64,000 nucleotides of DNA from contig JBBTTO010000002.1 in the NCBI GenBank assembly GCA_038064195.1, forward strand, positions 539,722-603,721. Reading direction: 5' to 3'. The stretch is from Patescibacteria group bacterium (GTDB taxonomy: Bacteria; Patescibacteriota; Microgenomatia; Levybacterales; UBA12049). The notes below the pieces were generated by a model. That model saw nothing but the letters and a program-made list of their open reading frames with translations. It was not told the DNA's origin and did no database searches. Numbering within the stretch: position 1 is the stretch's first letter; each line of letters starts with the position of its first letter. Below, piece after piece: positions 42,792-59,330 of this stretch. Made by a program: the position numbers and the translations under genes.

Positions 42792-43808
42792 ATGAAAAAA
42801 TTGAACATAGTTTTCCTTACTCGGTCGTATTATCCCAATGTAGGTGGGGTGGAGAAGCATGTTTATGAGATTTCCAAAAGATTAGCTGCTTTAGGTCATC
42901 ACGTTACTATCATTACCGAGGATACAAAGAGGGAAAAAGGAGTAGATTTTGATTTCCGGCTAAAAAATGTTGATGTCATTGAGATTCCTGTAGGAGGGGA
43001 TGATTGGTTTAAAAAGTTTCGTATCTGGAAATGGGTGTGGCAACATAAAAATATTTTTCTCAAATCAGATATCATCCATTGCCATGATGTCTTTTTCTGG
43101 TATTTACCTTTAGCATTTCTTTATCCTTTGAAAAATGTTTATACCACTTTTCATGGCTACGAAAGTTATCCAATTAAAAAAAAGGCAATTATTTATCGCA
43201 AGATATTTGAATACATGTCCAATCGCACGATCTGCGTAGGCGCCTTTATGACGAAGTGGTATCACGCTCATCCGGCCAAAATGATCTATGGAGCAGCTGA
43301 GATTCCTAAAAAAACTACTGCTCCTAAGAAAAATTCAGCGATTTTTATTGGTCGCTTGGATGAACATACCGGAATTGATGTCTATCTAAAGGCAACAGAG
43401 TTAATCAGAAAAAAAATAAAGAACTTCACCCTCACAGTATATGGTGACGGGCCATATACTGAGCAATTAAAAGGTCAGAAAGGCATCATTTTCAAAGGGT
43501 ACGATCTCTCAGCTGAGAAGGAAATTATTAAATATGAATATGCCTTCGTCTCGCGCTATTTGGCAATTCTTGAAGCGCTGGCAGCTAAACGTCGAGTTGT
43601 CGCAGTCTATGATAATCCAGTAAAGAAAGATTATTTAACGATGACCCCCTTTAAGGACTGGATCGATATTTGTCGCGATGAAGAAGATGTTGCAAAAATT
43701 GTCACAGAAAAAACCGGTAATGAAGCGATAACCAAGGCGTACACCTGGGTTAGCGAGCAGACCTGGGTCCGACTCGCCGAGGTTTATCTTTCTCTTTGGC
43801 AGAAATAA
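42792..43808 (+). CDS. Glycosyltransferase family 4 (GT-B)
   Basis: N-terminal YYPNVGGVEKHVYEISKRLAALGHHVTII and C-terminal LAILEALAAKRRVVA regions typical of GT4. Confidence 0.65.
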   Translation: MKKLNIVFLTRSYYPNVGGVEKHVYEISKRLAALGHHVTIITEDTKREKGVDFDFRLKNVDVIEIPVGGDDWFKKFRIWKWVWQHKNIFLKSDIIHCHDVFFWYLPLAFLYPLKNVYTTFHGYESYPIKKKAIIYRKIFEYMSNRTICVGAFMTKWYHAHPAKMIYGAAEIPKKTTAPKKNSAIFIGRLDEHTGIDVYLKATELIRKKIKNFTLTVYGDGPYTEQLKGQKGIIFKGYDLSAEKEIIKYEYAFVSRYLAILEALAAKRRVVAVYDNPVKKDYLTMTPFKDWIDICRDEEDVAKIVTEKTGNEAITKAYTWVSEQTWVRLAEVYLSLWQK

Positions 43809-45558
43809 TTATATTTTTAGAATGTTTAGTTTTTAGACAAAGATTGAGCAATCCAAAAATTCCTAATGCTATTGCTGTCAAAAGACTCACCATCTTAGCT
43901 ATCCACCGATCAGGAGTATCCCTAAATATCACATCAATTTTTGCAAGCCCTTCCGGAACTCTAAAAGTTATCACACCAGAATATTTTTTATTTTTAAAAT
44001 CAATTGGGGTGGGCTTATTGTTGATCAATACTTGCCAACCAGGATAGTAGTATGTATTCTCTTTCAGAAGCAGTGGAGTAGTCGCGTCGATAAGATACTG
44101 ATGTCGGGTCATGTCATGACGTAGGGTTTTGATCTGGGTCTTGGGCCCTGATAGAACTTCGATTGATTGATTTGGTATAGTTCCAATCCACGACTGGCTT
44201 CTGTCAACTGAGTGGGGAGTTGTGATGTCCACCCAGTTTGGTCGCTCATCAAAGAGTTTTTGCGAATATATCATTGCGTCGGTCATGGGATAGACTGTTT
44301 TGCGATTACCCCAATTTAAAATAGTATAGAGGGAGGTTATCAAGCATAAGAGAACTATAAAATATTTATTTTTGAAAACTTTGACTACAATCCCTGCCAT
44401 TACGGAGATAAGGAAAATATTTTCAAGCATCAGTCTCCAGGTGAACTGAAAATTCTTAAGAAAAGGCAAAATATTCCAAACCGGTCGGGTAACTTCTTGC
44501 ATAAGAGCAAAAAATATTACAAATAACCCTACGACTGCCCCAAGCAAGTAGAACTCTTTATGCTTTACTTTATGTTTAAGAAGAATATATATTGCTAGCG
44601 CAACGATGATCCATTCTGTGTATCCGACATTAAAATATAATTCACCGAAATGCCCCTGAAACAATAAGCCATAACGATTAGGTGAAAAAAGAAAACTCGT
44701 AATAGGGTGGAACTCTATCTTATTATCAGCTACATACCATGTGAGTTTGCCTTCAAAAAGAATTGGTAGCCAATAAAATGCGGTAAGGAGCATACCGATC
44801 AGTAGGCTTATTCCTAAAAGTATAAGAGGTAATATTTTTTTCCTTTTGCTTCTCAACCACACCAAAAATCCATAGCCAACCAACAATGGTAGAGAAACCA
44901 GGGATGAAACTTGATGCGAGAGGATCATTGAGCCAAAAATAAGAGCCTGTATTAGTACAGCATTGAATTCTTTTGTTTCAACAATTTTTTTGGTGAAGTA
45001 AAAAGCAAAAGGAAGAAAAGTCATAGAAAGAAGTTCTCCGATGCTTACTCTAAAATGAAGATCGATGAGATGAAAAGGAGCAAAAAGGTAGAAAATACTG
45101 GCGACAAAAGCAGATTTTTCTCCTAACTCATTTTTTATCCAGATATACATTCCTACCCCTGAGATGATAAATGAAGATGCGATCAGAAGTTTGACACTAT
45201 CGACAAAAGAAAAACCGATAAGGTGGAAGATAGAAGCAATATAATAAGGTAAGAAAAAAATAAAGATATAAACAGGACAACCATACGTCGCGCAGTGCCT
45301 ACCCATCCATTCAGGTATGATATTCCCTTGCATGATGTTATCAAAAAATTGAGCAGTAAATTTAGCATGGAGAGTCAGATCACCGCTTTCATAGGATCCC
45401 TTTCGCAGGATGCTGATAAGTGGCAGTAATGAAATAATAATAAGTAAAGCTAACAAATTTACTTTACGCTTAAAAATTTGCGTGTAGATAAAAAGTCCTG
45501 TCAGTAGTATCCCTGAGGCAATAATGTTGATGACTACCATTTTGTAAGGTTCAAGCAT
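43750..45558 (-). CDS. Large polytopic membrane protein, possible GT-C-type glycosyltransferase/polymerase
   Basis: At least 12 hydrophobic segments. Context is a glycan locus. No definitive motif. Confidence 0.35.
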   Translation of the reverse strand: MLEPYKMVVINIIASGILLTGLFIYTQIFKRKVNLLALLIIISLLPLISILRKGSYESGDLTLHAKFTAQFFDNIMQGNIIPEWMGRHCATYGCPVYIFIFFLPYYIASIFHLIGFSFVDSVKLLIASSFIISGVGMYIWIKNELGEKSAFVASIFYLFAPFHLIDLHFRVSIGELLSMTFLPFAFYFTKKIVETKEFNAVLIQALIFGSMILSHQVSSLVSLPLLVGYGFLVWLRSKRKKILPLILLGISLLIGMLLTAFYWLPILFEGKLTWYVADNKIEFHPITSFLFSPNRYGLLFQGHFGELYFNVGYTEWIIVALAIYILLKHKVKHKEFYLLGAVVGLFVIFFALMQEVTRPVWNILPFLKNFQFTWRLMLENIFLISVMAGIVVKVFKNKYFIVLLCLITSLYTILNWGNRKTVYPMTDAMIYSQKLFDERPNWVDITTPHSVDRSQSWIGTIPNQSIEVLSGPKTQIKTLRHDMTRHQYLIDATTPLLLKENTYYYPGWQVLINNKPTPIDFKNKKYSGVITFRVPEGLAKIDVIFRDTPDRWIAKMVSLLTAIALGIFGLLNLCLKTKHSKNIIISAKEKDKPRRVGPRSAR

Positions 45559-45644: not shown

Positions 45645-46865
45645 ATGAAAAAAAGTAACTCCTCTCTCCGCGTCACTTATGCCAAAGCTGTCCATGATGA
45701 AAAAGAAGAAGCGGCAGTTATTAAGGTCCTCCGCGAACATAGAACAATTCTTGGCCAGGAAACCAAGAAATTTGAAGAAGGTGTTGCTAAAGAATTTGGT
45801 AAAAAATTTGGCATCATGACCAATTCCGGTTCAAGTGCTAATTTATTGGCAGTGGAGCTCCTTAGTCTCCCTAAAGGTTCTGAGGTTATTACTCCTATGC
45901 TTACCTTTTCAACTACAGTTGCACCTCTTATCATGAAAGGGCTGATACCTGTTTTTATTGATGTAGTGCCTCAGACCTATCAGATTGACGTCAGCAAAGT
46001 TGAAAAAGCCATCACCAAAAAGACTAAAGCCCTTTTCATTCCTAATCTCTTGGGAAATATTCCTGATATGGCAGCGCTGAGTCGGATTGCCAAAAAATAC
46101 AAATTATTTTATATCGAGGATTCATGTGACACATTAGGTGCAACGTTTAACGGAAAGCCGACCGGGGTATATTCCGATATTTCTACGACCAGTTTTTACG
46201 GGTCACATATTATTACAGCAGGAGGAGGCGGTGGAATGCTTATGGTTAATAAAGAGACATGGCGAGACAGAGCGAAAGTCTTGCGTGGATGGGGGAGAGG
46301 ATCTGCCTCACTCAATGAATCCGAAGATTTAGATTTACGGTTTGCAACTAAAATTGGCAAAATGCCTTATGACGCCAAATTTATCTTTGGTGAGATTGGT
46401 TATAACTTTTTGCCGATAGAAATGGGAGCTGCCTTTGGTAATGTTCAGCTACAAAAGCTACCAAGATTTCGCCGCAGCAGGGAGCGAAATTATGCCAGGC
46501 TCTCTAAATTCTTTGCCAAATATACTGATTACTTTGCACTGCCAATTCAGGATTCCAAAGTTATTACCCAGTGGCTGTCGTTTCCTTTGACTATTAAAAA
46601 GAGTGCTCCATTCACCAGATTAGATATAGTAACCTATCTTGAACAGCATAATATTCAGACACGACCCATCTTTACCGGAGTTATTACCAAGCAACCCGGT
46701 TTCAAAAGCATAAAACATAGAAATGGTCAAAGATCATTTCCCGCTTCCGAGGAGATTATGGAGAGAGGCTTTGTCGTGGGTGTCCATCATGGCATGGAGC
46801 CCGAACATCTGAAAAAACTTGAAGAGACTATTACAGAATTTGTTACACGTTTCCCCAAGGAATAA
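45645..46865 (+). CDS. DegT/DnrJ/EryC1/StrS-family PLP/PMP enzyme. Likely CDP-4-keto-6-deoxyglucose 3-dehydrase (E1/DdhC-like) by context.
   Basis: DegT-family N-terminal region ...LGQETKKFEEGVAKEFGKKFGIMTNSGSSANLLAVELL. Length ~406 aa. Neighbouring rfbF, dehydratase and RfbJ-like genes. Confidence 0.5.
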   Translation: MKKSNSSLRVTYAKAVHDEKEEAAVIKVLREHRTILGQETKKFEEGVAKEFGKKFGIMTNSGSSANLLAVELLSLPKGSEVITPMLTFSTTVAPLIMKGLIPVFIDVVPQTYQIDVSKVEKAITKKTKALFIPNLLGNIPDMAALSRIAKKYKLFYIEDSCDTLGATFNGKPTGVYSDISTTSFYGSHIITAGGGGGMLMVNKETWRDRAKVLRGWGRGSASLNESEDLDLRFATKIGKMPYDAKFIFGEIGYNFLPIEMGAAFGNVQLQKLPRFRRSRERNYARLSKFFAKYTDYFALPIQDSKVITQWLSFPLTIKKSAPFTRLDIVTYLEQHNIQTRPIFTGVITKQPGFKSIKHRNGQRSFPASEEIMERGFVVGVHHGMEPEHLKKLEETITEFVTRFPKE

Positions 46866-46867
46866 AT

Positions 46868-47755
46868 CTAGAATTTCTCCAAACTACTCATATCAATTAT
46901 ACTTTTGTTTTGCTCGTAGTAACTGTAAAGTTTTTTCAGAGCTTCATCAAGTGGAGTAAAATAAAGTTCTTTGATCTCATTTTTTAGCCGTTCGATATTA
47001 CACGTATATTCTTTCCCTAAGTTTTTATTTTTGATGACTATTGGTTTATTACTTTTTGAGATTGCGATGATTTTTTGAGCAATAGTATAAAGATCGACTT
47101 TTTGTCCGACTCCGATATTGTAGACTCTATACTTTGGAGTATGAGTGAGGAAATATTCAAGTATTTTCATAAAGTCGTCGATATAGAGATAATCAAAATA
47201 TACGTTTTGATTGATAGTTATTGGGACTCCAACGATGCTTTTACAAATTGATTGCGATATAAAACGGATGTCGTAATCTTCGTATTTACCATAAAGCCCA
47301 AAAATTCTCAGGATTACTGCATCTTTATCATTTTCCAATAATTTTGAGCATAAAAATTTATATAAGCCATAATCGTCTTTTGGTATTGATCGTCCGAAAT
47401 TCTCTTCCTTGATATCAATAAGTGGGAATTCTTTATTATACTCAGCTCCGGAACCAAAAAATATAATTTTTTTAAAGTATTTCCGACACCTCAGGAGATT
47501 AACAAACATTCTCAAATTGGGATTTAGATAATTCAGAGTCGGATCGGATTTGCGGGTCCCTCCAACGTTTGCAGCGTGAATGAGAACATCCGATGGATGA
47601 GCTTTAAGAAACTCTCCGACTTTCTCTATATCAAGTAAGTCCAGTTCCCGATGTGTTGGGGCGATGATAGTATATCGGTCAGAAAATGCTTCTTGGATAT
47701 TACGGCCGATAAAACCATTTCCACCGGTAAGGAAAAGAGTAGTTGTTTTCATCAA
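46868..47755 (-). CDS. Extended-SDR NAD(P)-dependent reductase/epimerase, CDP-abequose/paratose synthase (RfbJ/RfbS)- or YerF-like
   Basis: TGGNGFIGRNI Rossmann motif. ~295 aa. Context. Confidence 0.5.
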   Translation of the reverse strand: MMKTTTLFLTGGNGFIGRNIQEAFSDRYTIIAPTHRELDLLDIEKVGEFLKAHPSDVLIHAANVGGTRKSDPTLNYLNPNLRMFVNLLRCRKYFKKIIFFGSGAEYNKEFPLIDIKEENFGRSIPKDDYGLYKFLCSKLLENDKDAVILRIFGLYGKYEDYDIRFISQSICKSIVGVPITINQNVYFDYLYIDDFMKILEYFLTHTPKYRVYNIGVGQKVDLYTIAQKIIAISKSNKPIVIKNKNLGKEYTCNIERLKNEIKELYFTPLDEALKKLYSYYEQNKSIIDMSSLEKF

Positions 47756-47758
47756 GGG

Positions 47759-49552
47759 TTAGTCTTCTTTGGGAGGAACTCCTAGCTCATTTTCCATTAA
47801 CTCTTTACGAGAAAGGAAAGGGAACATATCCTCATAGGTCTTAGAGACCATGGTCCCATCCGGCTTTTTGTAGGAGGAAATTCGGGGGACAATTGGTTGC
47901 CAGAGAGGTGTCATCACATCGCAAATGACAGGGCCATCGTAGTCCAAAACTGCTTTTAATTTGCTGGCTAAGTTACGAGATGAAGAGATACGTACACCTT
48001 TTATCTTGTACGTTTTTGCAATCTCAAGCATGTCGGGAAGCCAGAGACCCGTCTCAGGGCTTTCTCCCATAAATCTACCCTCCATATGCGTTTTCTGGGT
48101 ATGGCGGATCAGAAGGTAGCCGTTATTATTAAAGATAAACAATTTGATCGGAAGATTATTTTGTTTTATTGTTGCCAGTTCCTGAATATTCATTGATAGA
48201 CTGCCGTCCCCCGTGATGACAATAGTTCGTTTTTTAGGACTGGTCATCGCTAGCCCAAGGCCTGCGGGCCAGTAACCTAGCGTTGAGAGTCCGCCTGTAG
48301 TCATGAAGCGCTGGCCCTTTTTGATTTTCCATGCCTGACAAACGACATGAAAGCACGAACTTGTATCGATAAGTATGCTATCGTCGTTGCTCGCGATATC
48401 TGAAAGAACATCGCTGAAATAATAGGTATTTACTAATTTTTCCTGTCTGTATTCAGGTAAAGTAGTGGGATATTTTTCTTTCCACTGATTGCAAATTTTA
48501 ACCCATTCACTAAAGCTTGGGAAAATAATTTTCTTTCCTTGTTTGAGTACTTCTGCTATAAATACTTTTGCATCACTCTGAATTTTGAGGTCGATGGAAA
48601 CACCTGGTTTTGCGAGCTCACTTGATTCCAGGTCGACAACAACTTTTTTTGCATTACGTCCCCAGTCTTTCGGATCATAGCCGACAAGTCCGGTATCGAG
48701 TCTTGCACCAATTGCGATGATAAGATCGGCATTCTGAACAGCAAAATTTGCATAACGATCACCATAAAGCCCCGGCCTACCGGCAAAAAGCCTGTTATTG
48801 CTATCGATCAGATCAATGCCGAGTCGTGTAGTGATCACCGGAGCTTTCAAGAGTTTCAGGAGCTCATCAAGTTCTTTTTCTGCATGCGCAATTTTTATAC
48901 CCTGCCCTGCAAGGAGAAGGGGGCGTTTAGCTTTTTTAAGCATATTCAGGAGTTGATTGATGTCGCTTGATCTTGGTTGAGGCGTCGTCTCTTTGGGTGG
49001 CTGAAAATGTGTAAGCAGCTTTTCCGGGACTTGCATACGTTGAATATCAAGCGGGACATCAATCCAGACGGGACCGGTTCTCCCACTCATTGCCAGATAG
49101 TAAGCTTCTTCGAGGTAATAGGCAATTTTTGAAGGATCATCGACTCGTTTAAAGTATTTAGTACTTGCTTTACCAAAGGGGGCCATATTGATGCCTTGAA
49201 TACCGTACTGCCTTATATCATTTTGTTCCATATATTCAATGACTGAGGAATTAGACTGGCCAGAAATGACCATCATTGGGGCAGAGTCAACAAGTGCTCC
49301 GACTACACCGTTGAGAATATTCAGACCGGCCGGGCCAGCAGTTACCATGGCTACACCCAATTCTCCGTAGGCTCTTCCGTATGCTTCCGCAGCCATTCCT
49401 GCTGCTTGTTCATGGTGCGTAAAGATTGGGGTAATTGTTTTGTGTCGGTATACAGAGTCGTTAAGAAACATTGCTTGCCCACCAGTTAGCATAAAGATAG
49501 TTTTAACGCCTTTTTTGACGAGAAAGTTGACGATGTAATCCGCTACATTCAT
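47759..49552 (-). CDS. Thiamine-diphosphate-dependent acetolactate-synthase-like enzyme (YerE-like C2-branching enzyme candidate)
   Basis: Three-domain TPP enzyme architecture (N-terminal Pyr domain GGQAMFLND..., central domain, C-terminal PP domain with GDG...N motif region). ~597 aa. Confidence 0.55.
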   Translation of the reverse strand: MNVADYIVNFLVKKGVKTIFMLTGGQAMFLNDSVYRHKTITPIFTHHEQAAGMAAEAYGRAYGELGVAMVTAGPAGLNILNGVVGALVDSAPMMVISGQSNSSVIEYMEQNDIRQYGIQGINMAPFGKASTKYFKRVDDPSKIAYYLEEAYYLAMSGRTGPVWIDVPLDIQRMQVPEKLLTHFQPPKETTPQPRSSDINQLLNMLKKAKRPLLLAGQGIKIAHAEKELDELLKLLKAPVITTRLGIDLIDSNNRLFAGRPGLYGDRYANFAVQNADLIIAIGARLDTGLVGYDPKDWGRNAKKVVVDLESSELAKPGVSIDLKIQSDAKVFIAEVLKQGKKIIFPSFSEWVKICNQWKEKYPTTLPEYRQEKLVNTYYFSDVLSDIASNDDSILIDTSSCFHVVCQAWKIKKGQRFMTTGGLSTLGYWPAGLGLAMTSPKKRTIVITGDGSLSMNIQELATIKQNNLPIKLFIFNNNGYLLIRHTQKTHMEGRFMGESPETGLWLPDMLEIAKTYKIKGVRISSSRNLASKLKAVLDYDGPVICDVMTPLWQPIVPRISSYKKPDGTMVSKTYEDMFPFLSRKELMENELGVPPKED

Positions 49553-49553
49553 A

Positions 49554-50648
49554 TTAGATCAGGGCTTCTATTTCTGCATTTTTATTTTTAACATTTTTTT
49601 TATTTTTTAGATAGAGGGCGACGTCAATGATAATTCCTTCTTGTCCGGCAATTATTTCTCGTTTGCCAAGCTCTACCAGAATATCACGTGGATCTACATC
49701 AAACCTCTTGCCTGCTTTGACCGCATGTCTGCCAAAACCTGAGAAAACACCAGCCAGGCCGCTTGTAAGCCCGATTCCGTCAATGACCTGAGGTTTGGTC
49801 ATAATAGGTGCAATGATTTTGTCACTATTATCCATAAGCGTATAGAGATCAAGCCCTGTTTTAAATCCCATTTTTTCAATAACAGCTACAAAAACTTCCA
49901 GTTGACAGTTCCCGGCACCAGCTCCCATTCCTCGAGAAGTAGTGTCGATGATAGTTGCACCAGCTTCAACTGCCGCCACTGAATTCATTACAGCCAGACT
50001 CAAATTATTATGAGCATGAAAACCCACCTCAACTGAAAGACCATTGACGAGTATTCCGACTTTCTCTGTTACATCCTCTGGGAGATAAGCTCCTGCAGAG
50101 TCCATTAAAAGTACACCTTTTACACCATATGCTTGCATTAAGAGTGCTTGCGCGAGAAGTTCTTTGCTGGAGATCATATGCGACATCATCAGTACACCAT
50201 ATGTGGTGAGCTCTTTTTTTTTGGCATGGAGGAGATGCTCTTTGGTGACATTGGCTTCTGTACAATGTGTCGCTACCATTAGGGTCTCAAGGCCTGCTTC
50301 TATTGCCGGGTCAAGATCATCTGTAATCGTACCAAACCCAGGAATCAAAAAAGCACCCAGCTTGGTGTTTTTAAGTTCTTTTTTTGCTGTCATGAGCATC
50401 TCCTTATCACTCAGTAAAGATTTACCTAGTTGAATAGAAGAAGCGCCAAGTCCGTTACCATGCCCGACGATAAGTAGCTCTATCCCTGCTTTCTCAGCCC
50501 CTCTGGCATAGTCTTTGATATGTTCTTTACTAAATTGATGGGCAATTGCATGTGATCCGTCTCGAAGCGTTGAGTCCACTACTAAAAGTTTTTTTCCTGA
50601 TGTGTTATTTTTGTTTTGCATATGCTTCAGCTGCTGCGATTGCAGCAC
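49554..50648 (-). CDS. DmpG/HMGL-like aldolase (4-hydroxy-2-oxovalerate aldolase family)
   Basis: LVVDSTLRDGSHAIAHQFS pyruvate-carboxyltransferase (DRE-TIM) motif as in DmpG/BphI. Confidence 0.6.
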   Translation of the reverse strand: MLQSQQLKHMQNKNNTSGKKLLVVDSTLRDGSHAIAHQFSKEHIKDYARGAEKAGIELLIVGHGNGLGASSIQLGKSLLSDKEMLMTAKKELKNTKLGAFLIPGFGTITDDLDPAIEAGLETLMVATHCTEANVTKEHLLHAKKKELTTYGVLMMSHMISSKELLAQALLMQAYGVKGVLLMDSAGAYLPEDVTEKVGILVNGLSVEVGFHAHNNLSLAVMNSVAAVEAGATIIDTTSRGMGAGAGNCQLEVFVAVIEKMGFKTGLDLYTLMDNSDKIIAPIMTKPQVIDGIGLTSGLAGVFSGFGRHAVKAGKRFDVDPRDILVELGKREIIAGQEGIIIDVALYLKNKKNVKNKNAEIEALI

Positions 50649-51474
50649 AATTGATAATATCTAGATTACCTGCATAGGGTGGCAGATAATCTCCTCGTCC
50701 GACGACCTCACTAATCATAGTGATGACCCCGTTATCATAGAGAGGTGCGACAGTGAGTTTGTAGCCGGGGACATATTTTTTGATTGCTATAACTGTTTTA
50801 TCGATCGCTTTACTAATTGTATCGATTTTGGCATTCTTGACTTGAGTATAGACCATGTTGTGCATGATGATAGGGGGATCAGCGGGATTGAGGATAATGA
50901 TAGCTTTGGCTTTGGGTACATTCGTAAAGCTTTTAATACCCTCACTGGTTGTCTGAGTATACTCATCAATATTGTTACGCGTTCCAATGCCTGCTGATTT
51001 AGAGGAAATACTCCCTACAATTTCTGCATATTCTGTCTGGGGTTCAAGTTCTATGAGCGTTTTGATCAGTGGAATAGTGGCCTGACCTCCACAAGTTATC
51101 ATATTGATATTGTCTTCTTTAAGACATTCATCCATATTCAGAAAAGGGATGCACATTTTGCCGATACGAGAGGGTGTAAGATCGATAGTAAATTTCTTAA
51201 GCTTTTTAAGGATAGGCGCATGGATTACATGTGCGTCAGCAGTTGTAGCATCAAAGACGATATCACAACATTCAGGATTGTTTTCTATTGCTTGAATGGA
51301 AAGGTGAGAGGTAGGGACTCCAAGCTTTTTGGCTCTGGCAATATTTTCTGATTCTGGGTTTTGTCCGGCAAACATTCCCACCTCCAAGTATTCAGATTTG
51401 AGGGCTTTCATCAAAAGATCAGAACCAAGATTTCCGGTTCCAATGATACCAACTTTTACTTTCTTTTTTGTCAT
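50605..51474 (-). CDS. Acetaldehyde dehydrogenase (acetylating), DmpF-like
   Basis: KVGIIGTGNLGSDLLMKALKS...DIVFDATTADAHV... closely parallels the DmpF N-terminus (KVAIIGSGNIGTDLMIK...DFVFDATSA). Directly upstream of the DmpG-like gene, as in dmpFG. Confidence 0.6.
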   Translation of the reverse strand: MTKKKVKVGIIGTGNLGSDLLMKALKSEYLEVGMFAGQNPESENIARAKKLGVPTSHLSIQAIENNPECCDIVFDATTADAHVIHAPILKKLKKFTIDLTPSRIGKMCIPFLNMDECLKEDNINMITCGGQATIPLIKTLIELEPQTEYAEIVGSISSKSAGIGTRNNIDEYTQTTSEGIKSFTNVPKAKAIIILNPADPPIIMHNMVYTQVKNAKIDTISKAIDKTVIAIKKYVPGYKLTVAPLYDNGVITMISEVVGRGDYLPPYAGNLDIINCAAIAAAEAYAKQK

Positions 51475-51524
51475 GGATCTAAGCTTCGGCTATTGTAACA
51501 TACCAAAGAACGAGTAAGGGTAGG

Positions 51525-52427
51525 TTATTTTTTGGCGGAGAGTCCAAATGTTTTATCAACAATGAATTTTGGCCGATTTCGAGTTTCGTCCATAATTCGT
51601 TTGATATATTCATTTTGTATACCAAGAATGATGCAAATGAGCGTGAAGCCAAAAAGAACAACCGCGAGTTCAAGTCTTAGAAATGCAAAGGCAATAAGTG
51701 TCGCAATCCCAAAAAATCCTCCAAACATCCAGGGTGAGAGGAGAGTAATATAGGAAAATGAGTAAATACCGTTCAGCGCAACTCTAAACATTGTGACATA
51801 ATCAGCCTTTGACTTGCCAGCAAATCGTTCAGGACGGTCAAAGGGGATGCCAATTTGCTTAAATCCTACCCAGACGGCTATCCCTCTAAAAAATTGATTA
51901 TGTTCAGGAATTTTTGTTATAACGCTATAGACACGTCGGTCGAGAAGGCGAAAGTCACTAACATTTTCAGGGAGTGAACCTTTGGTAGTAAAGTCCATAA
52001 GGCGATAGAACGCTAAACTTCCGATAATCTTGAGAAATGGAACTTTTTTTCGTTTTTTTACTATTCCATATACGATATCGTAGCCTTCCTCCCATTTTTC
52101 AGTAAATTGAGGAATCAGTTCGGGAGGCTCTTGCAGGTCAGCCATCATGATGACTGCTGCGTCGCCTGAGGCGAAATTAAGCCCAGCGATAATTCCTCCA
52201 TCACATCCTTCATTTTTCGCCAGTTTAAGGATTTTAATACGTTTATCTTTTTTGTGAGCTTTGATGAGTTCACTCAGTGTTTTATCTTTGGAGCCATGCT
52301 CAACTACTACAACTTCAAAGTTGTATGTTGTAAACGTGTCCATGAATTTACTGAGTCTCTTCGTAAGCTCCGGTACAACTTCTTCCTCATTATAGGCGGG
52401 GATGACAATGGATATGAGCTTCTTCAT
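51525..52427 (-). CDS. GT2 polyprenyl-phosphate glycosyltransferase (GtrB/ArnC/DPM1-like) with C-terminal TM helices
   Basis: ISIVIPAYNEEE and ADLQEPPE (DxDLQDPPE-type) motifs. Two C-terminal TM segments. Confidence 0.7.
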   Translation of the reverse strand: MKKLISIVIPAYNEEEVVPELTKRLSKFMDTFTTYNFEVVVVEHGSKDKTLSELIKAHKKDKRIKILKLAKNEGCDGGIIAGLNFASGDAAVIMMADLQEPPELIPQFTEKWEEGYDIVYGIVKKRKKVPFLKIIGSLAFYRLMDFTTKGSLPENVSDFRLLDRRVYSVITKIPEHNQFFRGIAVWVGFKQIGIPFDRPERFAGKSKADYVTMFRVALNGIYSFSYITLLSPWMFGGFFGIATLIAFAFLRLELAVVLFGFTLICIILGIQNEYIKRIMDETRNRPKFIVDKTFGLSAKK

Positions 52428-52443
52428 GTGTAGCTATTGTACA

Positions 52444-53478
52444 CTAAAATATCCGTTTCCAGTAGAGGTGCTTAGTGAGGCTTTTTGTCTTTAGATGTTT
52501 TTTGAGAGCTGTAAGACGCGCATATCGCTTTGAGAGAAAGTCATCACTGCTAAAGTTAGTCTTTTTAAGACCTGAGACGAGATCTGCTACCGACTTCTCG
52601 ATGTCCCACTCCTGCTTGATATGAGGCATGATCTTCTGAAATCTCTGGAAATTCACTTTATAACTGCGTGAGTCTGGTTGAGTACCGGTATAACTGATTT
52701 TAGTATCCGGGAGTTTTTGATGAACTATCTTTACGAGTTCATTGACCTGGAAATTATTTTCAGGATAACCGATATTGATAATTTGCTTATTCACTTTTCG
52801 GGAGTCAATCTTCAGGAAGTGGATAAAGATACTACTAAGGTCACGCACGTCAATCAAAGGTCTCCATGGGCTTCCATCGCTTTCAATTCTAATTTCACCC
52901 ATTGAATATGCACAGGTGGTAAAGTTGTTGACGACCAAATCGTTGCGGAAAGCAGGGGAGAAGCCATAGACAGTTGAGTTCCTCAGTGATATCACACAGA
53001 AAGACCGATCTGCAAGCTCCTTAAGACTTTTTTCGGAAGCGATTTTTGAGCGGGCGTACTCAGTAAGTGGGTGGGGAATCGATTCCTCTGTGACAGTGTC
53101 TTGATCAGCGATTCCATAGATACTACAAGATGAGGAGAAAATAAAACGTTTAACACCGGCTTTTTTACTTAATGAAGCTAATCGTTTAGTTGCTTTGAAA
53201 TTAATTGAGCGAGTTAATTTTGATTCCAGTTCACCCAACGCGTCATTTGAAAGCGCTGCTAAATGGATGACGGCGTCAATCCCTTGAAGATCGCTCAACG
53301 TAACTTTCCTGACGTCCTTGCGTAGGAGTCTGTATTGAGCTTGAGGGCTGACTTTCGTATCTTGAAAAAAAAGCGTATCCAGTCCGACGACATCGTACTC
53401 TTCCTCCAGAAGCTTATCAATGAGTACCGAGCCAATATATCCTTCAGAACCGGTTACCAATACTTTTTTTATGGCCAT
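52444..53478 (-). CDS. NAD-dependent epimerase/dehydratase (extended SDR); candidate CDP-glucose 4,6-dehydratase by context
   Basis: VTGSEGYIGSVL Rossmann motif and YxxxK region. ~344 aa. Overlaps rfbF by 10 nt. Confidence 0.5.
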   Translation of the reverse strand: MAIKKVLVTGSEGYIGSVLIDKLLEEEYDVVGLDTLFFQDTKVSPQAQYRLLRKDVRKVTLSDLQGIDAVIHLAALSNDALGELESKLTRSINFKATKRLASLSKKAGVKRFIFSSSCSIYGIADQDTVTEESIPHPLTEYARSKIASEKSLKELADRSFCVISLRNSTVYGFSPAFRNDLVVNNFTTCAYSMGEIRIESDGSPWRPLIDVRDLSSIFIHFLKIDSRKVNKQIINIGYPENNFQVNELVKIVHQKLPDTKISYTGTQPDSRSYKVNFQRFQKIMPHIKQEWDIEKSVADLVSGLKKTNFSSDDFLSKRYARLTALKKHLKTKSLTKHLYWKRIF

Positions 53479-54287
53479 AATTTCCAGGGTGGATTATCAC
53501 TATTCCAGATTTTATTAAGATCTTCAAGTTCTTTGTATGTATCTACTGCAAACCAAAAGCCACTGTGCTTATAGACAGATAGGGTTTTCTCTTCTGCCAT
53601 TTTAGTAAGTAACTCAATTTCTGAATTATAATCCTTGAATTTTCTGAGCACACTTCTATTAAATACCATATAGCCACCATTCACCCAATCTGATAAAGTA
53701 GGTTTTTCCTGAAATCCCGTGACCGCGTTATCGACACTTATTTTAATATGGCCATATTTGGACCTCGGATGCACACCTGTGATCGTCCCCAAGCGTTTAT
53801 TCTTCTTATGGAAGCGGAGGAGTTCTTTCATGTTTAGATTGGTTACTCCATCTCCGTACGTCACCATAAAGTACGGATCGTTTGTCGGAACGTACTTACT
53901 ACAGCGAAAAATCCTCTCTCCTGGAAGACTTTCAAGTCCAGTATCGACAAATGTGATTTTGAAGTCATCAGTACCGCGTTGTTTTTTGATATGGTAGGTC
54001 GTTTTATGATTTTTTGTTTCGATTGTAAAGTCTGAAGTAAATGCTTTTTGGTTAAGGAAAAAGTCTTTTATATAATTTGCTTTGTAGCCGAGAGCGAGGA
54101 TAAAATCATTATACCCATAGGAGGAGTAGATTTTCATGATGTGCCAAACGATTGGCTGATTGCCTACCAAGACCATGGGTTTTGGCTTGAACTCGGTCTC
54201 CTCTTTGAGTCTGGTGCCCGCCCCTCCACAGAGAATAATAACTTTCATCTCGAAAATTATTCTAAGCAAAAGAGATTGAAATAGCAA
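53469..54287 (-). CDS. rfbF: Glucose-1-phosphate cytidylyltransferase
   Basis: VIILCGGAGTRLKEETEFKPKPMVLVGNQPIVWHIMKIYSSYGYNDFILALGYK parallels RfbF/DdhA (AVILAGGLGTRL...KPKPMVEIGGKPILWHIMK...). Confidence 0.7.
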   Translation of the reverse strand: MLFQSLLLRIIFEMKVIILCGGAGTRLKEETEFKPKPMVLVGNQPIVWHIMKIYSSYGYNDFILALGYKANYIKDFFLNQKAFTSDFTIETKNHKTTYHIKKQRGTDDFKITFVDTGLESLPGERIFRCSKYVPTNDPYFMVTYGDGVTNLNMKELLRFHKKNKRLGTITGVHPRSKYGHIKISVDNAVTGFQEKPTLSDWVNGGYMVFNRSVLRKFKDYNSEIELLTKMAEEKTLSVYKHSGFWFAVDTYKELEDLNKIWNSDNPPWKLWP

Positions 54288-54354: not shown

Positions 54355-55545
54355 ATGAACTCTATGCGGATCTTCGCATTTGTTGGTCTGGTAGTTTTTC
54401 TCTATTATTGCCTCTATTATCTTTATTTCGGCTTTTTACATCCGATGCCTGGTCTGGGTGATAGCTGGGATTACCATATACCTATTTCTCAAACAATTTT
54501 GCAAGGGACATTTCTCAGCCCGGTACAGGTGAAGCTGCCGCAGTGGTATTATCCAGGCTCGGCTGAAGCTATTAACGGTATTCTTATATTTTTAGGTATC
54601 CCTTTGACAATTTCTAACCTGTTGGCAGTTTTTTGTTTATTTTTTATTTGCTGGAAATTAGGAGGAGTCTTCAAATTGAGTTTTTATGAAAGTCTTTTTT
54701 TTGCTTCCACGATTGTGACTTTAAATGTCTTTGTTCGTTGGTACAATGCCGTCAGTGTTGATGTTTGGTTGGTCAACTTCTTTCTTCTTGGGATTATTTT
54801 GTTTGAGAGGCCCAAAGAGAGTCTGCGTTATGTTCTTTTCCTGGGTTTTATTCTGGGGATGTTAATTGGTACGAAATTAAGTGGGTGGTATTATCTTGTT
54901 ATGCTTAGTCTCATCTATGGAAAATCTTTGCTTGCGCTTATGTCTTTTAAAAAGATTATCATTTTTATGATCCCTTTTTCCATTTTTGGACTCTTTTGGT
55001 ACCTGCGCAATCTGTTACTTTTTGCTAATCCATTTTATCCAATAGCCTTTTTATCTCTTCCTATGAAAATGTATTTTCCTATCAAAATATCAACAATTAT
55101 CGTTTCATCCCCAAAATTTTTCTGTGACGCACTCATTGCCGAATACAAGGTTTGGGTAGTAGTCATTCCGCTAGCAATTTTTACGAGTATCAGACCTATA
55201 TTCAGTCATACAAGGGTTTCTTCTCAGATGATCAAGCTTTTGTTACTTATAACTTTTAGTTTTGGCGTTTTTCTGTTATCACCATCTGAATTTCAAGCTG
55301 AAGTAGTTGTCTCAAGCCTTCGCTATTCATATCCGGCTTTCATTTTGATGATCCTTCTCACATTTATTGTCGCCAAGCATTATCATAAATTGGAAATGCT
55401 CAGTATACTAAGTATTGCCTCGATGATTATGGTGACATCGTTTCTTTATTATCCGAAATTAGTTTTTATCTATGGCTCGTTGAGTCTTTTCGTTGTCTTT
55501 TTACTGGACAAATATCAACGAACACTGGAGAGGATTTTTGCCTAA
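54355..55545 (+). CDS. Hypothetical polytopic membrane protein (possible glycan polymerase/GT-C)
   Basis: Many TM segments. No motif. Confidence 0.4.
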   Translation: MNSMRIFAFVGLVVFLYYCLYYLYFGFLHPMPGLGDSWDYHIPISQTILQGTFLSPVQVKLPQWYYPGSAEAINGILIFLGIPLTISNLLAVFCLFFICWKLGGVFKLSFYESLFFASTIVTLNVFVRWYNAVSVDVWLVNFFLLGIILFERPKESLRYVLFLGFILGMLIGTKLSGWYYLVMLSLIYGKSLLALMSFKKIIIFMIPFSIFGLFWYLRNLLLFANPFYPIAFLSLPMKMYFPIKISTIIVSSPKFFCDALIAEYKVWVVVIPLAIFTSIRPIFSHTRVSSQMIKLLLLITFSFGVFLLSPSEFQAEVVVSSLRYSYPAFILMILLTFIVAKHYHKLEMLSILSIASMIMVTSFLYYPKLVFIYGSLSLFVVFLLDKYQRTLERIFA

Positions 55546-55547
55546 CT

Positions 55548-56486
55548 ATGAAAATCTCACTTATTACTACTATCTTTAATGAAGAGAAATCGATTAAAGA
55601 GTTTCTTGCAGGTTTGTCGGGACTATCGCTGATGCCAGACGAAGTAATTATTGTTGATGGGGGATCAACGGATCAGACATTAGCCAAGATTGCAGAGTTT
55701 AGGGATGATACAAAGTTACCTTTTGATTTTATTATAGCTACTAAAAAAGGGAATCGCTCAGTAGGGAGGAACGAGGGCGTACGAATTGCCAAAGGAGAGA
55801 TTATTGCTTTCACTGACGCTGGTTGTATTTTGGACAAAGACTGGCTTAAAGAGATTACCAAACCATTCGCGGACAGAAGCGTTGATGTTGCAGCCGGCTA
55901 CTATGCAGCCAGGGCGGAGACTATCTTTCAAAAATGTCTGGTTCCGTATGTTCTGGTGATGCCTGACAAAGTCAATCCGGATAGTTTTTTGCCAGCTACT
56001 CGTTCAATGGCTATTCGTAAAAGTGTTTTTGAAAAAATGGGAGGATTTGATCCTAAATATTCTCACAATGAAGATTATGTTTTTGCCCGTAAGTTGCGCT
56101 TTGAGGGAAGGACAATAGTATTTGCCCCCAAAGCAATCGTCAACTGGATCCCGCGCCGAACTCTCAAAGAAGCATATACTATGTTTTGGAGATTCGCCTA
56201 TGGAGATATTGAGGCCGGTATCCTTAGACCAAAGGTCTTATTGATTTTCACAAGGTATGTACTAGGAATTATTCTGGTTATTACTTTTCTCTTAACGTTA
56301 AATTTTTACATTCTTATAATGCTTATTTTGGGTTTAGTTGGTTATGCTATTTGGGCAGTACAGAAAAATTATCTTTATGTAAAGAATAGGCAAGCGATTT
56401 ATGTTCTACCTCTTATTCAATTTACCGCAGATGCTGCTGTTCTTATGGGTTCTACCCAGGGAGTGATAAAACGATATGGGATATAA
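55548..56486 (+). CDS. Glycosyltransferase family 2 with C-terminal TM segments
   Basis: ISLITTIFNEE...IIVDGGSTDQT GT2 N-terminal motifs and DAG (DxD-like). Confidence 0.65.
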   Translation: MKISLITTIFNEEKSIKEFLAGLSGLSLMPDEVIIVDGGSTDQTLAKIAEFRDDTKLPFDFIIATKKGNRSVGRNEGVRIAKGEIIAFTDAGCILDKDWLKEITKPFADRSVDVAAGYYAARAETIFQKCLVPYVLVMPDKVNPDSFLPATRSMAIRKSVFEKMGGFDPKYSHNEDYVFARKLRFEGRTIVFAPKAIVNWIPRRTLKEAYTMFWRFAYGDIEAGILRPKVLLIFTRYVLGIILVITFLLTLNFYILIMLILGLVGYAIWAVQKNYLYVKNRQAIYVLPLIQFTADAAVLMGSTQGVIKRYGI

Positions 56487-57702
56487 AAAAGATGTTATCA
56501 AGGGAATATCCTGGATTGGAATTCTTCGTTTTCTAACGAAAGCAATAGGATTTGCCGAAGCGATAATTTTGGCGAGAATTCTTCTTCCAGAGCAATTCGG
56601 GGCATATGCGGTAGCTCTCCTGGCACTTGGGCTTCTCGAGGTTATAACAGAGACTGGAGTCAATATCGTTTTGATTCAGGAACAAAATGTGGATGACTAT
56701 GTTAGCTCAGCATGGATAGTTTCCATCGTGAGGGGAGTAGGAATTATGCTTATTCTTCTCATTGGATCTCCTTTTATTGCTGGTTTTTTCCACTCTAGCC
56801 AATCACTTCCATTACTCTATATTATCGCCATAGTTCCGCTTTTAAGAGGTTTTATCAATCCGGCGATTGTCAAATTCCAAAAAGACCTGCTTTTTGGTAG
56901 AGATTTTTTGTATCGACTTGCTATTCTCTTAGTTGATACATCAATTTCTTTAACAGTTACTTTATTAACTAAAAGTCCAATTGGTATAGTATGCGGCTTA
57001 GTTTCAGGGGTAATTGTTGAAGTGGTACTTTCTTACATAATTATTAGTCCTCGACCTCATCTTGATTTCAAAAAAGGTTATCTTCATAGACTATTCCATA
57101 GGGGTAAATGGATTACAGGAACGAGTATCTTCAATTATTTGTTTTTTAACGCAGACAATATTGTTGTAGGTAGATTACTGGGTGCGGGATCTTTAGGTAT
57201 ATATCAGCTTGCGTATTCGTTATCTGTCGTTCCACTCACAGAATTAAGCAATGTATTTGTTCACGTTACCTTTCCGATTTTCAGCAAACTTTCTAGTGAT
57301 CATAATCGTCTTAAATCTGGGTTTTTTAAAACAATGCTTCTGCTCTCAATTTTAACTTTGCCGCTAGTATTCGTACTTGTTTTTCTGCCGGGAATATTTA
57401 TTTATATCCTTGGAGAAAAATGGTCGGGGATAGTTTCTGTATTACCTATTCTTGGGATTTTGGGTTTGATAAAAACAGTCTTTGGTTCTTCAACTGCGTT
57501 ATTTTTGAGTGAAAAAAAACAAAGCTATGCTACAGTAACTTCTCTCATTAATATTCTTGGATTAATGATTCCCATTGTCCCACTTGTGAGTCACTATGGA
57601 ATTGTTGGAGCAGGAACGGCTGCTCTTATTGGTTCGTTGGTTGCGACTCCATTTTATATTTACTATATTGCAAAAATATTCCAATTTCATAAGAATATCT
57701 GA
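56476..57702 (+). CDS. MOP-superfamily polysaccharide flippase (Wzx-like)
   Basis: ~408 aa with 12-14 predicted TM helices, typical Wzx-like N-terminal region. Sits in the glycan locus. Confidence 0.55.
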   Translation: MGYKKDVIKGISWIGILRFLTKAIGFAEAIILARILLPEQFGAYAVALLALGLLEVITETGVNIVLIQEQNVDDYVSSAWIVSIVRGVGIMLILLIGSPFIAGFFHSSQSLPLLYIIAIVPLLRGFINPAIVKFQKDLLFGRDFLYRLAILLVDTSISLTVTLLTKSPIGIVCGLVSGVIVEVVLSYIIISPRPHLDFKKGYLHRLFHRGKWITGTSIFNYLFFNADNIVVGRLLGAGSLGIYQLAYSLSVVPLTELSNVFVHVTFPIFSKLSSDHNRLKSGFFKTMLLLSILTLPLVFVLVFLPGIFIYILGEKWSGIVSVLPILGILGLIKTVFGSSTALFLSEKKQSYATVTSLINILGLMIPIVPLVSHYGIVGAGTAALIGSLVATPFYIYYIAKIFQFHKNI

Positions 57703-57704
57703 AT

Positions 57705-59330
57705 ATGAGGCAATTGAAAAAAGTCAACCTGGGTTCTGGCAGAGATTATCTCGAGGGATGGATAAATGTAGATATAGATCCGCACGCTAAGGTTGATGTC
57801 GTTGCTGATTTGAGCTCAACCTTCCCTTTTAAAGACGACACTATTGATGAAGTCAAGGCTTCGGATATACTGGAGCATTTCACAAAAGAGGATGGAGTTA
57901 AGTTCTTGACAGAATGTCATCGTGTACTACGTCACGGAGGTAAAATTTTTATCAGGACTCATGATCTTCAGGCGATCACTAGGAAATTTTCCGGTGATCC
58001 CTTAGTTATGACGCATTTCATCTATGGAGATACTTCAGATACAGGGGTTTTTGGAGCTCACAAGTATGCGTATACTGAAGATTCTCTTCGATTTGTCCTT
58101 AAAAAAACAGGATTTGAAATTGAATCGTATCGTTTGGATGAGACAAATCACGTCGTCGCGGCTGTTAAGAAGCCAATAAAAAAGAAAAATTTGAAGATCG
58201 CAATTATTCAGCAAACCCCCGACATTGGGGGAGCGGAGACTTATATGCATTCCCTCGTTGAAAAATTCCTAAAAAAGGACAATCAGATCTACTTAGTAAC
58301 AAATCTTGACCGATATGTAAAGTTATTTTCGGATCGCGTTGTTATAGATATTGTGCCATACAATTTAGATTTCAATGGAGATTGGAGAGGATTAATAAAA
58401 TCAACATTTATTCTCCCCATGGCTATTATTTACTATTTACGTTTGCTAAATAGGTATAGGAAAGAAGGAGTTGATGTCCTTTTGGCTAGTAATTTTAGCG
58501 ACAAGCTTTTGGTAACATTTCTTTCACTGTTTTATCACCTGCCAATAGTTTGGATTGAATATGGTAGGTTAGGAGCTATCTTTAAGCGTAATTTTTTGAT
58601 TCCTAAAATTCTATATCGCTTATTTAAAAATATTCCGAAAGAAGTAATCGTCCCTAGCAAAAATACACAACAAAGCTTGATTGTTGACGCGAGGGTATCC
58701 TTGGCCAAACTCCGTGTTATTCCATGCGGTACGGAGATTCAGTCAAAAAAAATAAAAAAGTCCAAATTATCAGCAGAGTTTAAAGATAATTTTGTTATCG
58801 GTAACATATCCCGCATGACAAGAGAAAAAGGACAGCAAGTTATTATTAATGCCGCTCCGCTTATTATTAAGAAAGTTCCCAATGCTAAGTTCCTACTTGT
58901 GGGTGATGGGCCTGATAGAGATTATTTTCAGTCGTTAATAAATACACTTGGATTAAAGGAATATTTTATCCTCCCCGGATTTGTTGAAGACACGAACGAA
59001 TATTATTCTTTAATGGATATTTTTATTTTCCCGACTATATGGGAATTAGAAGGATTTGGTGTAGTAGCGATTGAGGCAATGATGAGGGAGATTCCTGTTA
59101 TTGCAAGTAACTTCGGACCTATTCCTGAGATTATCGATGATTGCAGGACCGGGTTACTTTTCAAACCTGGGGACAGTGAGGATTTGTCCCAAAAGGTTAT
59201 AAAATTGGCAGATGACTCGAAATTGAGAACTACGCTGGCCGGGAATGCTCTTAATAAAGCCAGGGAAGAATACGCTATTGATAAGATCAGTGAAAAGGTG
59301 CTTGAGGTGCTTAATGATGCTACGCTTTAA
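57705..59330 (+). CDS. Fusion protein: N-terminal class I SAM methyltransferase and C-terminal GT4 glycosyltransferase
   Basis: N-terminal VNLGSGRDYLEGWINVDID...LRHGGKIFI. C-terminal GT4 motif EGFGVVAIEAMMREIPVIASN. Confidence 0.6.
   Translation: MRQLKKVNLGSGRDYLEGWINVDIDPHAKVDVVADLSSTFPFKDDTIDEVKASDILEHFTKEDGVKFLTECHRVLRHGGKIFIRTHDLQAITRKFSGDPLVMTHFIYGDTSDTGVFGAHKYAYTEDSLRFVLKKTGFEIESYRLDETNHVVAAVKKPIKKKNLKIAIIQQTPDIGGAETYMHSLVEKFLKKDNQIYLVTNLDRYVKLFSDRVVIDIVPYNLDFNGDWRGLIKSTFILPMAIIYYLRLLNRYRKEGVDVLLASNFSDKLLVTFLSLFYHLPIVWIEYGRLGAIFKRNFLIPKILYRLFKNIPKEVIVPSKNTQQSLIVDARVSLAKLRVIPCGTEIQSKKIKKSKLSAEFKDNFVIGNISRMTREKGQQVIINAAPLIIKKVPNAKFLLVGDGPDRDYFQSLINTLGLKEYFILPGFVEDTNEYYSLMDIFIFPTIWELEGFGVVAIEAMMREIPVIASNFGPIPEIIDDCRTGLLFKPGDSEDLSQKVIKLADDSKLRTTLAGNALNKAREEYAIDKISEKVLEVLNDATL

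Follow-up and report, generated by a model that had tools for sequence, protein, structure and literature searches.

A gene cluster that brings an aldolase and an aldehyde dehydrogenase together with enzymes of sugar branching was described in Pectobacterium atrosepticum SCRI1043, where the thiamine diphosphate (ThDP)-dependent enzyme ErwE, a homologue of YerE, and the reductase ErwF adjoin ErwI, a BphI-like aldolase, and ErwJ, a BphJ-like dehydrogenase (Steitz et al., Angew. Chem. 2022, PMC9306805). Its authors proposed that ErwJ converts acetyl-CoA to acetaldehyde, which ErwI joins to pyruvate to give 4-hydroxy-2-oxopentanoate (HOPA). ErwE couples HOPA to CDP-4-keto-3,6-dideoxyglucose, and reduction by ErwF then yields erwiniose, a sugar with a C4 branch. 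When purified, ErwE accepted HOPA, with the 4R form preferred, and did not accept pyruvate, and ErwI and ErwJ show 43% and 41% 'similarity', respectively, to BphI and BphJ (PMC9306805). Eight tightly packed genes of comparable make-up lie on contig JBBTTO010000002.1 of a Patescibacteria group bacterium, at positions 45645-54287 of the 64-kb stretch of DNA that was analysed as a whole and is called the window below. By exact sequence match, the contig is that of a metagenome-assembled genome deposited as ENA ERZ1292617 (Hain_H52_01um_R3_1, 1,075,823 bp). They probably encode an erwiniose-type pathway for an acyl-branched sugar whose C4 branch derives from HOPA, a reading to which a probability of about 0.7 can be given.

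An earlier note on this DNA had listed the same eight genes, and all of them were recovered in place with strong family matches. It had read the cluster as a yersiniose-like pathway with C2 branching, in which a DmpF/DmpG pair would supply or recycle a unit for the ThDP enzyme, and had taken this association to suggest a novel glycan modification. The interpretation is partly supported. That the pair supplies a keto-acid unit to the ThDP enzyme appears right in outline, in view of the equivalog scores and of a linkage seen in 67/67 loci, and the erwiniose scheme fits better than C2 branching. The principle of a DmpFG pair inside a nucleotide-sugar operon is not new, the scheme having been published with in vitro support in 2022 (PMC9306805). 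What is new is the host lineage, the wide and strict occurrence of the DmpF-DmpG-ThDP triad, a Phe/aromatic signature that the aldolase clade carries naturally, an acceptor module of different make-up (a Cj1427-like short-chain dehydrogenase/reductase, or SDR, with an Fe-S-free dehydrase and no E3) and a GtrB-like transferase inside the operon. The seemingly odd catabolic pair would thereby find an explanation: the aldolase would build a keto acid that the ThDP enzyme grafts on a sugar.

The DmpF-DmpG-ThDP triad and its conservation

Genes were assigned to families by Pfam and NCBIfam profile scans with the cut-offs of the models, and E-values of 1e-79 to 1e-131 rule out chance matches. In the list of open reading frames (ORFs), seven genes run head-to-tail on the minus strand (46868-54287), with intergenic spacing of -17 to +50 nt, and one is convergent on the plus strand:

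53469-54287, minus strand: RfbF-like glucose-1-phosphate cytidylyltransferase (TIGR02623, 268 bits, cut-off 300; PF00483)
52444-53478, minus strand: SDR of 344 aa, called SDR344 below (no match to a dehydratase model)
51525-52427, minus strand: GtrB-like family 2 glycosyltransferase (GT2) with a C-terminal membrane region (PF00535; PgfS 201 bits, ArnC 117 bits)
50605-51474, minus strand: DmpF/BphJ/ErwJ-like acylating acetaldehyde dehydrogenase (TIGR03215, 360 bits, cut-off 282)
49554-50648 (ORF), minus strand: DmpG/BphI/ErwI-like class II pyruvate aldolase (TIGR03217, 400 bits, cut-off 286; communication domain PF07836)
47759-49552, minus strand: YerE/ErwE-like ThDP enzyme (three TPP domains)
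46868-47755, minus strand: SDR of 295 aa, putative ErwF/YerF-like ketoreductase (PF01370)
45645-46865, plus strand: E1/ColD-type dehydrase of the DegT family (PF01041; RfbH model NF011936, 346 bits, cut-off 423)

The RfbF-like gene overlaps the SDR344 gene by 10 nt and probably starts at the ATG at 54248, which would give a protein of 259 aa; its relatives are called at 259-260 aa. For the DmpG-like gene the deposited call starts at an internal ATG at 50621 and yields 355 aa, against 364 aa for the ORF, and for the 295-aa SDR it starts at 47752 (294 aa).

The window ThDP enzyme, aligned with 24 homologues (60-66% identity), was the sole query in a scan of 185,579 species, with one genome each. 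The scan returned 185 relatives, and the analyses use the best 80 loci (54-63% identity), designated by L numbers where they have to be told apart; no Pectobacterium locus is in this set. Gene content of these loci was determined by tblastn with the eight window proteins, and a locus was counted as evaluable when 2 kb or more of sequence was available 5' of the ThDP gene (n = 67). The DmpF, DmpG and ThDP genes follow one another in this order on one strand in 67/67 evaluable loci, with median gaps of -4 nt and +14 nt. The aldolase gene directly precedes the ThDP gene in 65/67 and shares its strand in all of them. A count of colinearity based on ORFs gives 61/67; four of the misses are artefacts of ORF calling, and two (L050 and L068) reflect an insert of about 1.1 kb. 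DmpF and DmpG are lacking only where the contig breaks off within some 2 kb on the 5' side of the ThDP gene. Since the query was the ThDP enzyme alone, the linkage is not circular, and the DmpFG insertion, for which the earlier note had proposed a comparison of homologous operons, proves to be conserved.

The best 80 loci carry about ten phylum-level labels. These include Patescibacteria lineages, Omnitrophota, Elusimicrobia, Clostridia, Melainabacteria, the Planctomycetes/PVC group and Fibrobacter, to all of which erwiniose-type logic would thus extend past Pectobacterium and mycobacteria, as well as Lachnospiraceae, Lentisphaerae and Desulfobacteraceae. Two of the triad carriers, Clostridium gasigenes DSM 12272 (L042) and Lachnotalea glycerini DSM 28816 (L080), are in culture, which makes the prediction testable. 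E. coli MhpF and MhpE do find the DmpF/DmpG pair in tblastn searches, and with E. coli MhpB, MhpC and MhpD as queries neither the window nor the 80 loci give a match. Among plasmids, tblastn returned only ilvB-type genes at 31-32% identity.

Both members of the pair retain the hallmarks of their families. The DmpF-like protein aligns over its full length with 7Z3S, HsaG and DmpF, keeps the catalytic cysteine motif ITCGGQATIP and is 43% identical to E. coli MhpF. The DmpG-like protein is 44.8% identical to DmpG (1NVM), and the identities of the pair to catabolic enzymes are 45-46%. Alignment with DmpG 1NVM, 8IH7 and 4LRS shows that the catalytic set Arg17, Asp18, His21, His200 and His202 is kept in the window, and the catalytic residues are invariant among cluster-linked aldolases (n = 74). 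Three other positions differ from those of the catabolic enzymes. In the window aldolase, Leu87, Leu89 and Tyr290 of BphI (the last corresponding to DmpG Tyr291) are replaced by Phe, Ile and Phe, respectively, with Phe100 and Phe302 of the 364-aa ORF standing at BphI positions 87 and 290. Among the cluster-linked aldolases, position 290 is Phe in 74/74, position 87 is Phe, Tyr or His in 72/72, and position 89 is Ile in 68 of 72; these sites are Leu, Leu and Tyr in DmpG, 8IH7, E. coli MhpE and 4LRS (the T. curvata enzyme).

In its wild-type form BphI makes only the 4S product; stereocontrol is lost with Y290F, and combining this exchange with L87W or L87N gives 4R specificity (PMC3962088). Because the combination of Phe290 with an aromatic residue at position 87 resembles that of the 4R-specific engineered BphI, the cluster-linked clade probably makes the 4R acid, which is the enantiomer preferred by ErwE. 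Phe at Tyr290 together with an aromatic residue at Leu87 may therefore be taken as a signature of biosynthetic DmpG-type aldolases, which are presumably 4R-selective and could serve as biocatalysts. Cluster-linked aldolases often continue at the C-terminus with a short stretch that ends in SLL or ALI (49554-49620 in the window) and is absent from E. coli MhpE.

The ThDP enzyme carries the canonical GDG...NN motif. Its top NCBIfam names are acetolactate synthases, and it is below the cut-off of every acetolactate synthase model, with 358 bits on TIGR00118 against a required 538. The best match in the Protein Data Bank (PDB) is JanthE (8RPH; 377 bits, E = 1e-111, 35.5% identity). Plant acetohydroxyacid synthase (AHAS) gives 257 bits, and PpYerE (PDB entry 5AHK) does no better at 240 bits. 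JanthE, which is YerE-like, takes several keto acids, pyruvate and HOPA among them (PMC12188165). The neighbours of the ThDP gene are the aldolase and an SDR, and there is no ilv context. Judged by its sequence, the window enzyme is YerE-like, as the earlier note had held, and not an acetolactate synthase. The 295-aa SDR gene begins 3 nt 3' of the ThDP gene, and the nearest solved relative of its product is the RmlD-like 4-ketoreductase 9GPI, at 60 bits only. Members of its family are present in 31 related loci, where their median distance downstream from the midpoint of the ThDP gene is about 1.4 kb; in 26 of these loci they share the strand of the ThDP gene, and in nine they directly follow it. 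The protein is a putative ErwF/YerF-like ketoreductase of the new side chain.

Further enzymes accompany the triad in some of the related loci. Seven triad clusters (L018:3860-5607, L049:5355-7105 and five more loci) enclose transketolase genes that are split into an N-terminal and a C-terminal half (183-238 bits on transketolase models). Both loci with the closest synteny to the window are among them, and the window has none. A soil contig (L083:16550-19976; JGI 3300012209, contig Ga0137379_10000144) has an RfbF-SDR345-GT2-DmpF-DmpG-ThDP-SDR cluster as in the window, directly followed on its 3' side by an HpcH/HpaI-type aldolase (HpaI/GarL-like, 125-130 bits), a second ThDP enzyme of 597 aa and a 289-aa protein. 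Two modules of a keto acid and a carboligase would thus stand in one operon.

The acceptor sugar

The enzymes that would form the keto-sugar acceptor depart from the canonical set. SDR344, which had been described as an SDR dehydratase, is no recognisable 4,6-dehydratase: it has no match to the CDP-glucose 4,6-dehydratase model TIGR02622, and it lacks the D-K/D-E dyad of the SSDKAYG SDRs of related loci. Its own motif is SSSCSIYG, and SSDKAYG is what the SDRs beside RfbF read in most related loci; the SDR beside RfbF in L018 reaches 214 bits on TIGR02622. SDRs were sorted by this motif and by NCBIfam match, and the Louvain family in which 'dehydratase-like SDRs' were grouped (family 3) is heterogeneous. 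The best PDB sequence match of SDR344 is 6VO6 (116 bits). Its AlphaFold model (pLDDT 91.9) has 6VO8/6VO6 as best fold match (TM 0.79/0.89, 30% identity), followed by MoeE5, TunA and C4-epimerases, with the first 4,6-dehydratase at rank 31. According to their titles, 6VO8 and 6VO6 are entries for Cj1427, an NAD-dependent C4-dehydrogenase of Campylobacter jejuni.

Ser116, Ser117, Cys118, Ser119, Tyr141 and Lys145 (SSCS...Y..K) are invariant in the SDR344 family, which is abundant in genomes labelled CPR (candidate phyla radiation). Its gene always overlaps the RfbF-like gene (L081/L082, L083, L085/L086), and L081/L082 is an 85%-identical copy of the window cluster. Most likely, SDR344 is a C4-dehydrogenase of the Cj1427 type that acts directly on CDP-glucose and makes the 4-keto group. 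The window contains no other dehydratase-type SDR. With SDR344 departing from the canonical CDP-glucose 4,6-dehydratases, the earlier assignment to a 3,6-dideoxyhexose pathway is unproven for this locus, and C6 may or may not be deoxygenated.

In L085/L086 (7246-16223), an RfbF-SDR345 pair heads a different cluster. This cluster has no DmpFG and contains a NeuB-like protein, a DHQ-synthase-like protein, an FGGY kinase, a 613-aa ThDP enzyme and a short-chain dehydrogenase.

The convergent DegT-family gene had been called E1-like. This holds in so far as RfbH and E1 are its nearest relatives, with E1 (3BCX) as best PDB match at 243 bits and ColD next at 172 bits, and the His of its SFYGSH motif aligns with E1 His220, the active-site His that replaces the lysine binding pyridoxal 5'-phosphate (PLP). 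The Fe-S motif, scored by alignment to the E1 sequence, is lost: the E1 stretch DCYCAPGCDNTC reads GSASLNESEDLD in the window dehydrase, which has a single Cys in the whole protein. His-type dehydrases of the 80 loci and the window comprise 47 with the Fe-S Cys motif and six without (the window, L018, L047, L048, L049 and L060). By these sequence features the window enzyme is ColD-like and without an Fe-S cluster.

As the earlier note had observed, no E3 reductase is encoded in the window. Because an Fe-S-free dehydrase cannot take electrons from E3, the absence can be explained differently, and E3 is probably unnecessary rather than missing. ColD and the C. jejuni C3-dehydratases need only PLP and glutamate, and Cj1427 together with a PLP/glutamate-dependent C3-dehydratase gives a 3-deoxy-4-keto sugar (PMC10680097). 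The window would thus illustrate an alternative route to the keto-sugar acceptor in minimal-genome organisms, without E3 and possibly without 6-deoxygenation.

L047 and L060 carry the triad without RfbF, together with an Fe-S-less dehydrase and a 4,6-dehydratase of 352-366 aa with the STSEVYG motif; the L047 copy reaches 319 bits on the model for dTDP-glucose dehydratase, and the L060 copy is assigned by motif. The acceptor nucleotide and sugar may hence differ between clusters.

Delivery genes and the flanking region

The GtrB-like GT2 aligns over residues 5-297 with residues 28-333 of Synechocystis sll0501 (5EKP/5EKE; 212 bits), which is presumably the GtrB structure; ArnC (108 bits) and dolichyl-phosphate mannose synthase (DPMS) come next. 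It is kept beside the triad at 46-57% identity, mostly in CPR-labelled loci. Further surface-glycan genes flank the cluster on both sides:

43750-45558, minus strand: GT-C membrane glycosyltransferase (PMT_2/PTPS_related; PF10131, PF13231)
54355-63828, plus strand: remaining surface-glycan genes, namely a 396-aa membrane protein, a GT2, a Wzx-like flippase, a methyltransferase-GT4 fusion, two PMT_2 GT-C proteins, a GT2 and a methyltransferase (Pfam)

The family of the first of these is also adjacent to the cluster in L049 (two copies) and L081/L082, and the gene set at 54355-63828 also flanks it in L081 and L083. The GT-C enzyme at 43750-45558 likely uses a lipid-linked sugar, and its association with the GT2 suggests a lipid-phosphate carrier route to a surface glycoconjugate. 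The 396-aa polytopic membrane protein (54355-55545, plus strand), whose gene is divergent from rfbF, has no Pfam match at E <= 1e-4 and could be a glycan-processing or flippase component.

The first 36 kb of the window hold housekeeping genes and a gene for a 2030-aa Rhs/Tc-toxin-like protein, and no catabolic genes. This surface protein (20572-26664, plus strand), encoded on a contig of about 1.08 Mb, has SpvB, TcdB middle/N-terminal, FG-GAP, RHS-repeat, F5/8 type C and PA14 domains. In L048, an ORF of 2029 aa lies just 3' of the cluster. Just upstream of the glycan locus are genes for a ParB-like protein (36262-37143, plus strand) and a PIN_12-domain protein (40805-41929, minus strand).

Proposed pathway, alternatives and described systems

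In the pathway that we infer, all substrates being predicted, the RfbF-like enzyme would provide CDP-glucose and SDR344 would oxidise its C4. The Fe-S-free dehydrase would then remove the 3-OH using pyridoxamine 5'-phosphate (PMP), probably regenerated from glutamate, to give CDP-3-deoxy-4-keto-hexose. The DmpF/DmpG pair would run in the biosynthetic direction: the DmpF-like enzyme would convert acetyl-CoA and NADH to acetaldehyde and pass it on to the DmpG-like aldolase, which would condense it with pyruvate to (4R)-HOPA. A dedicated DmpF with its catalytic Cys and the communication domain of DmpG suggest that the acetaldehyde is channelled. The ThDP enzyme would decarboxylate HOPA to a 3-hydroxybutanoyl unit and join this to the keto sugar at C4, after which the 295-aa SDR would reduce the side-chain ketone. 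Finally, the GtrB-like GT2 may load the sugar on polyprenyl phosphate, from which the neighbouring GT-C enzyme may move it to a surface acceptor. A fuller version can be put forward only tentatively, and the odds are against the complete combination: SDR344 would be translationally coupled to RfbF, the 6-OH would be retained, the product would be a 3-deoxy-4-C-(1,3-dihydroxybutyl)hexose and not erwiniose, it would be carried on a polyprenyl lipid and attached by the GT-C enzyme, and the aldolases would be natural 4R-specific DmpG variants. If this combined version holds, and with the same doubt attached to it, an ultra-small groundwater bacterium would make a sugar not previously described.

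Several points weigh against the erwiniose-type reading. GtrB-type enzymes normally use UDP-sugars, and a CDP-sugar donor is not known for an enzyme of this type. The acceptor is uncertain in that the window has no canonical 4,6-dehydratase, although one may lie elsewhere on the contig. The similarity of SDR344 to Cj1427 is limited to the 30% identity given above, and its invariant Cys stands in a motif that Cj1427 lacks. The stereochemical signature is extrapolated from BphI mutants in which position 87 is Trp or Asn rather than Phe or Tyr. The orthology of the ThDP enzyme to ErwE rests on gene context; its nearest solved relative, JanthE, at 35.5% identity, is promiscuous and takes pyruvate too. 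ErwE itself was assayed with a surrogate acceptor only (PMC9306805).

The use of pyruvate by JanthE bears on the C2 branch of the yersiniose type, for which pyruvate or free acetaldehyde would be the donor of the ThDP enzyme and DmpF and DmpG would only supply or scavenge acetaldehyde and acetyl-CoA. YerE uses pyruvate (PMC9306805, PMC12247030), and JanthE does so besides longer keto acids. A pyruvate user needs no aldolase, yet an aldolase gene precedes the ThDP gene in every evaluable locus, and the window aldolase has lost neither a catalytic residue nor its channel domain. Moreover, ErwE, the only characterised enzyme with such a gene context, rejects both pyruvate and acetaldehyde (PMC9306805, PMC12247030), so that a C2 branch seems unlikely. 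The rejection of pyruvate also speaks against a reversed order, a formal alternative raised by Steitz et al. (PMC9306805), in which an acetyl branch is made first and the aldolase extends it. A branch other than C4 might also arise from an aldehyde other than acetaldehyde, given that BphI Leu89, which governs aldehyde length, corresponds to Ile in 68/72 cluster aldolases; Leu to Ile is a conservative exchange, however, and the DmpF catalytic Cys and the communication domain point to channelled acetaldehyde. Both of these variants are very unlikely.

It can also be asked whether DmpF and DmpG are catabolic meta-cleavage enzymes present in the operon by chance or recent transfer, with the ThDP enzyme an acetolactate synthase of branched-chain amino-acid biosynthesis. 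Both proteins do pass equivalog models built on catabolic enzymes, and acetolactate synthases do head the NCBIfam names of the ThDP enzyme. Against this stand the strict linkage of the triad across many phyla, the flanking genes, all of which are glycan genes, and the stereo-determining residues of the aldolase, which are unlike those of every catabolic reference. The tblastn searches with MhpB, MhpC and MhpD bring up no hydratase, hydrolase or dioxygenase homologue in the window and the 80 loci, and the ThDP enzyme has a YerE-like protein as its best solved match. Both readings, catabolic module and acetolactate synthase, are hardly credible and were rejected on the sub-cut-off acetolactate synthase scores, the 67/67 linkage and the lack of MhpB/C/D homologues. 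None of the outcomes that the earlier note had named as counting against its interpretation was found: DmpF and DmpG do not fall into unrelated families, they are linked to the cluster, and the ThDP gene does not encode an acetolactate synthase. The erwiniose-type pathway is thus the preferred reading, and it can be set against a number of described systems.

The GtrB/ArnC-type transferases that work with GT-C enzymes in the Gtr, Arn and PgfS systems resemble the window GT2 in the full-length match and in the adjacent PMT_2 genes. They differ in that the donor here would be a CDP-activated branched sugar, and no GtrA-like flippase was identified. For the acceptor, the window has in common with Cj1427 and its C3-dehydratase (C. 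jejuni heptose) and with ColD (colitose) an SDR and an Fe-S-less, His-type DegT dehydrase, which would form an E3-free 3-deoxy-4-keto route. Unlike in the Cj1427 system, the nucleotide is probably CDP, not GDP, and the sugar a hexose, not a heptose; the SSCS motif is not found in Cj1427, and the window dehydrase scores higher with E1 (243 bits) than with ColD (172). The full DdhA/DdhB/DdhC(Fe-S)/DdhD set is not present in the window, which has a DdhA-like protein, no DdhB, a DdhC-like protein without the Fe-S cysteines and no E3.

Compared with the catabolic pairs DmpFG, BphIJ, MhpFE and HsaFG, the window proteins belong to the same two families above the equivalog cut-offs and keep the catalytic set, the Cys and the channel domain; they differ by the absence of meta-cleavage genes, by the proposed biosynthetic direction and by the replacement of Leu87, Leu89 and Tyr290. 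Like the route proposed here, the YerE/YerF pathway of yersiniose A in Yersinia pseudotuberculosis consists of a ThDP-dependent acyl addition at C4 of a CDP-4-keto-deoxyhexose and subsequent ketoreduction by an SDR, but YerE derives a C2 branch from pyruvate, and no aldolase/dehydrogenase pair is described for it in PMC9306805 and PMC12247030. The erwiniose cluster is found in an enterobacterium, whereas the host here belongs to the Patescibacteria, and the contig measures about 1.08 Mb. The genes stand in the order J-I-E-F in the window, a GtrB-like lipid-phosphate transferase lies inside the operon, the E1 homologue is Fe-S-less with no E3, and a Cj1427-like SDR replaces the CDP-glucose 4,6-dehydratase. 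Both clusters unite a ThDP enzyme, a reductase (putative in the window), an aldolase and a dehydrogenase with CDP-deoxysugar genes, both would use HOPA built by the aldolase as the C4 donor, and both have diverged from the catabolic enzymes to a similar degree, with 45-46% identity here against 43% and 41% 'similarity' for ErwI and ErwJ.

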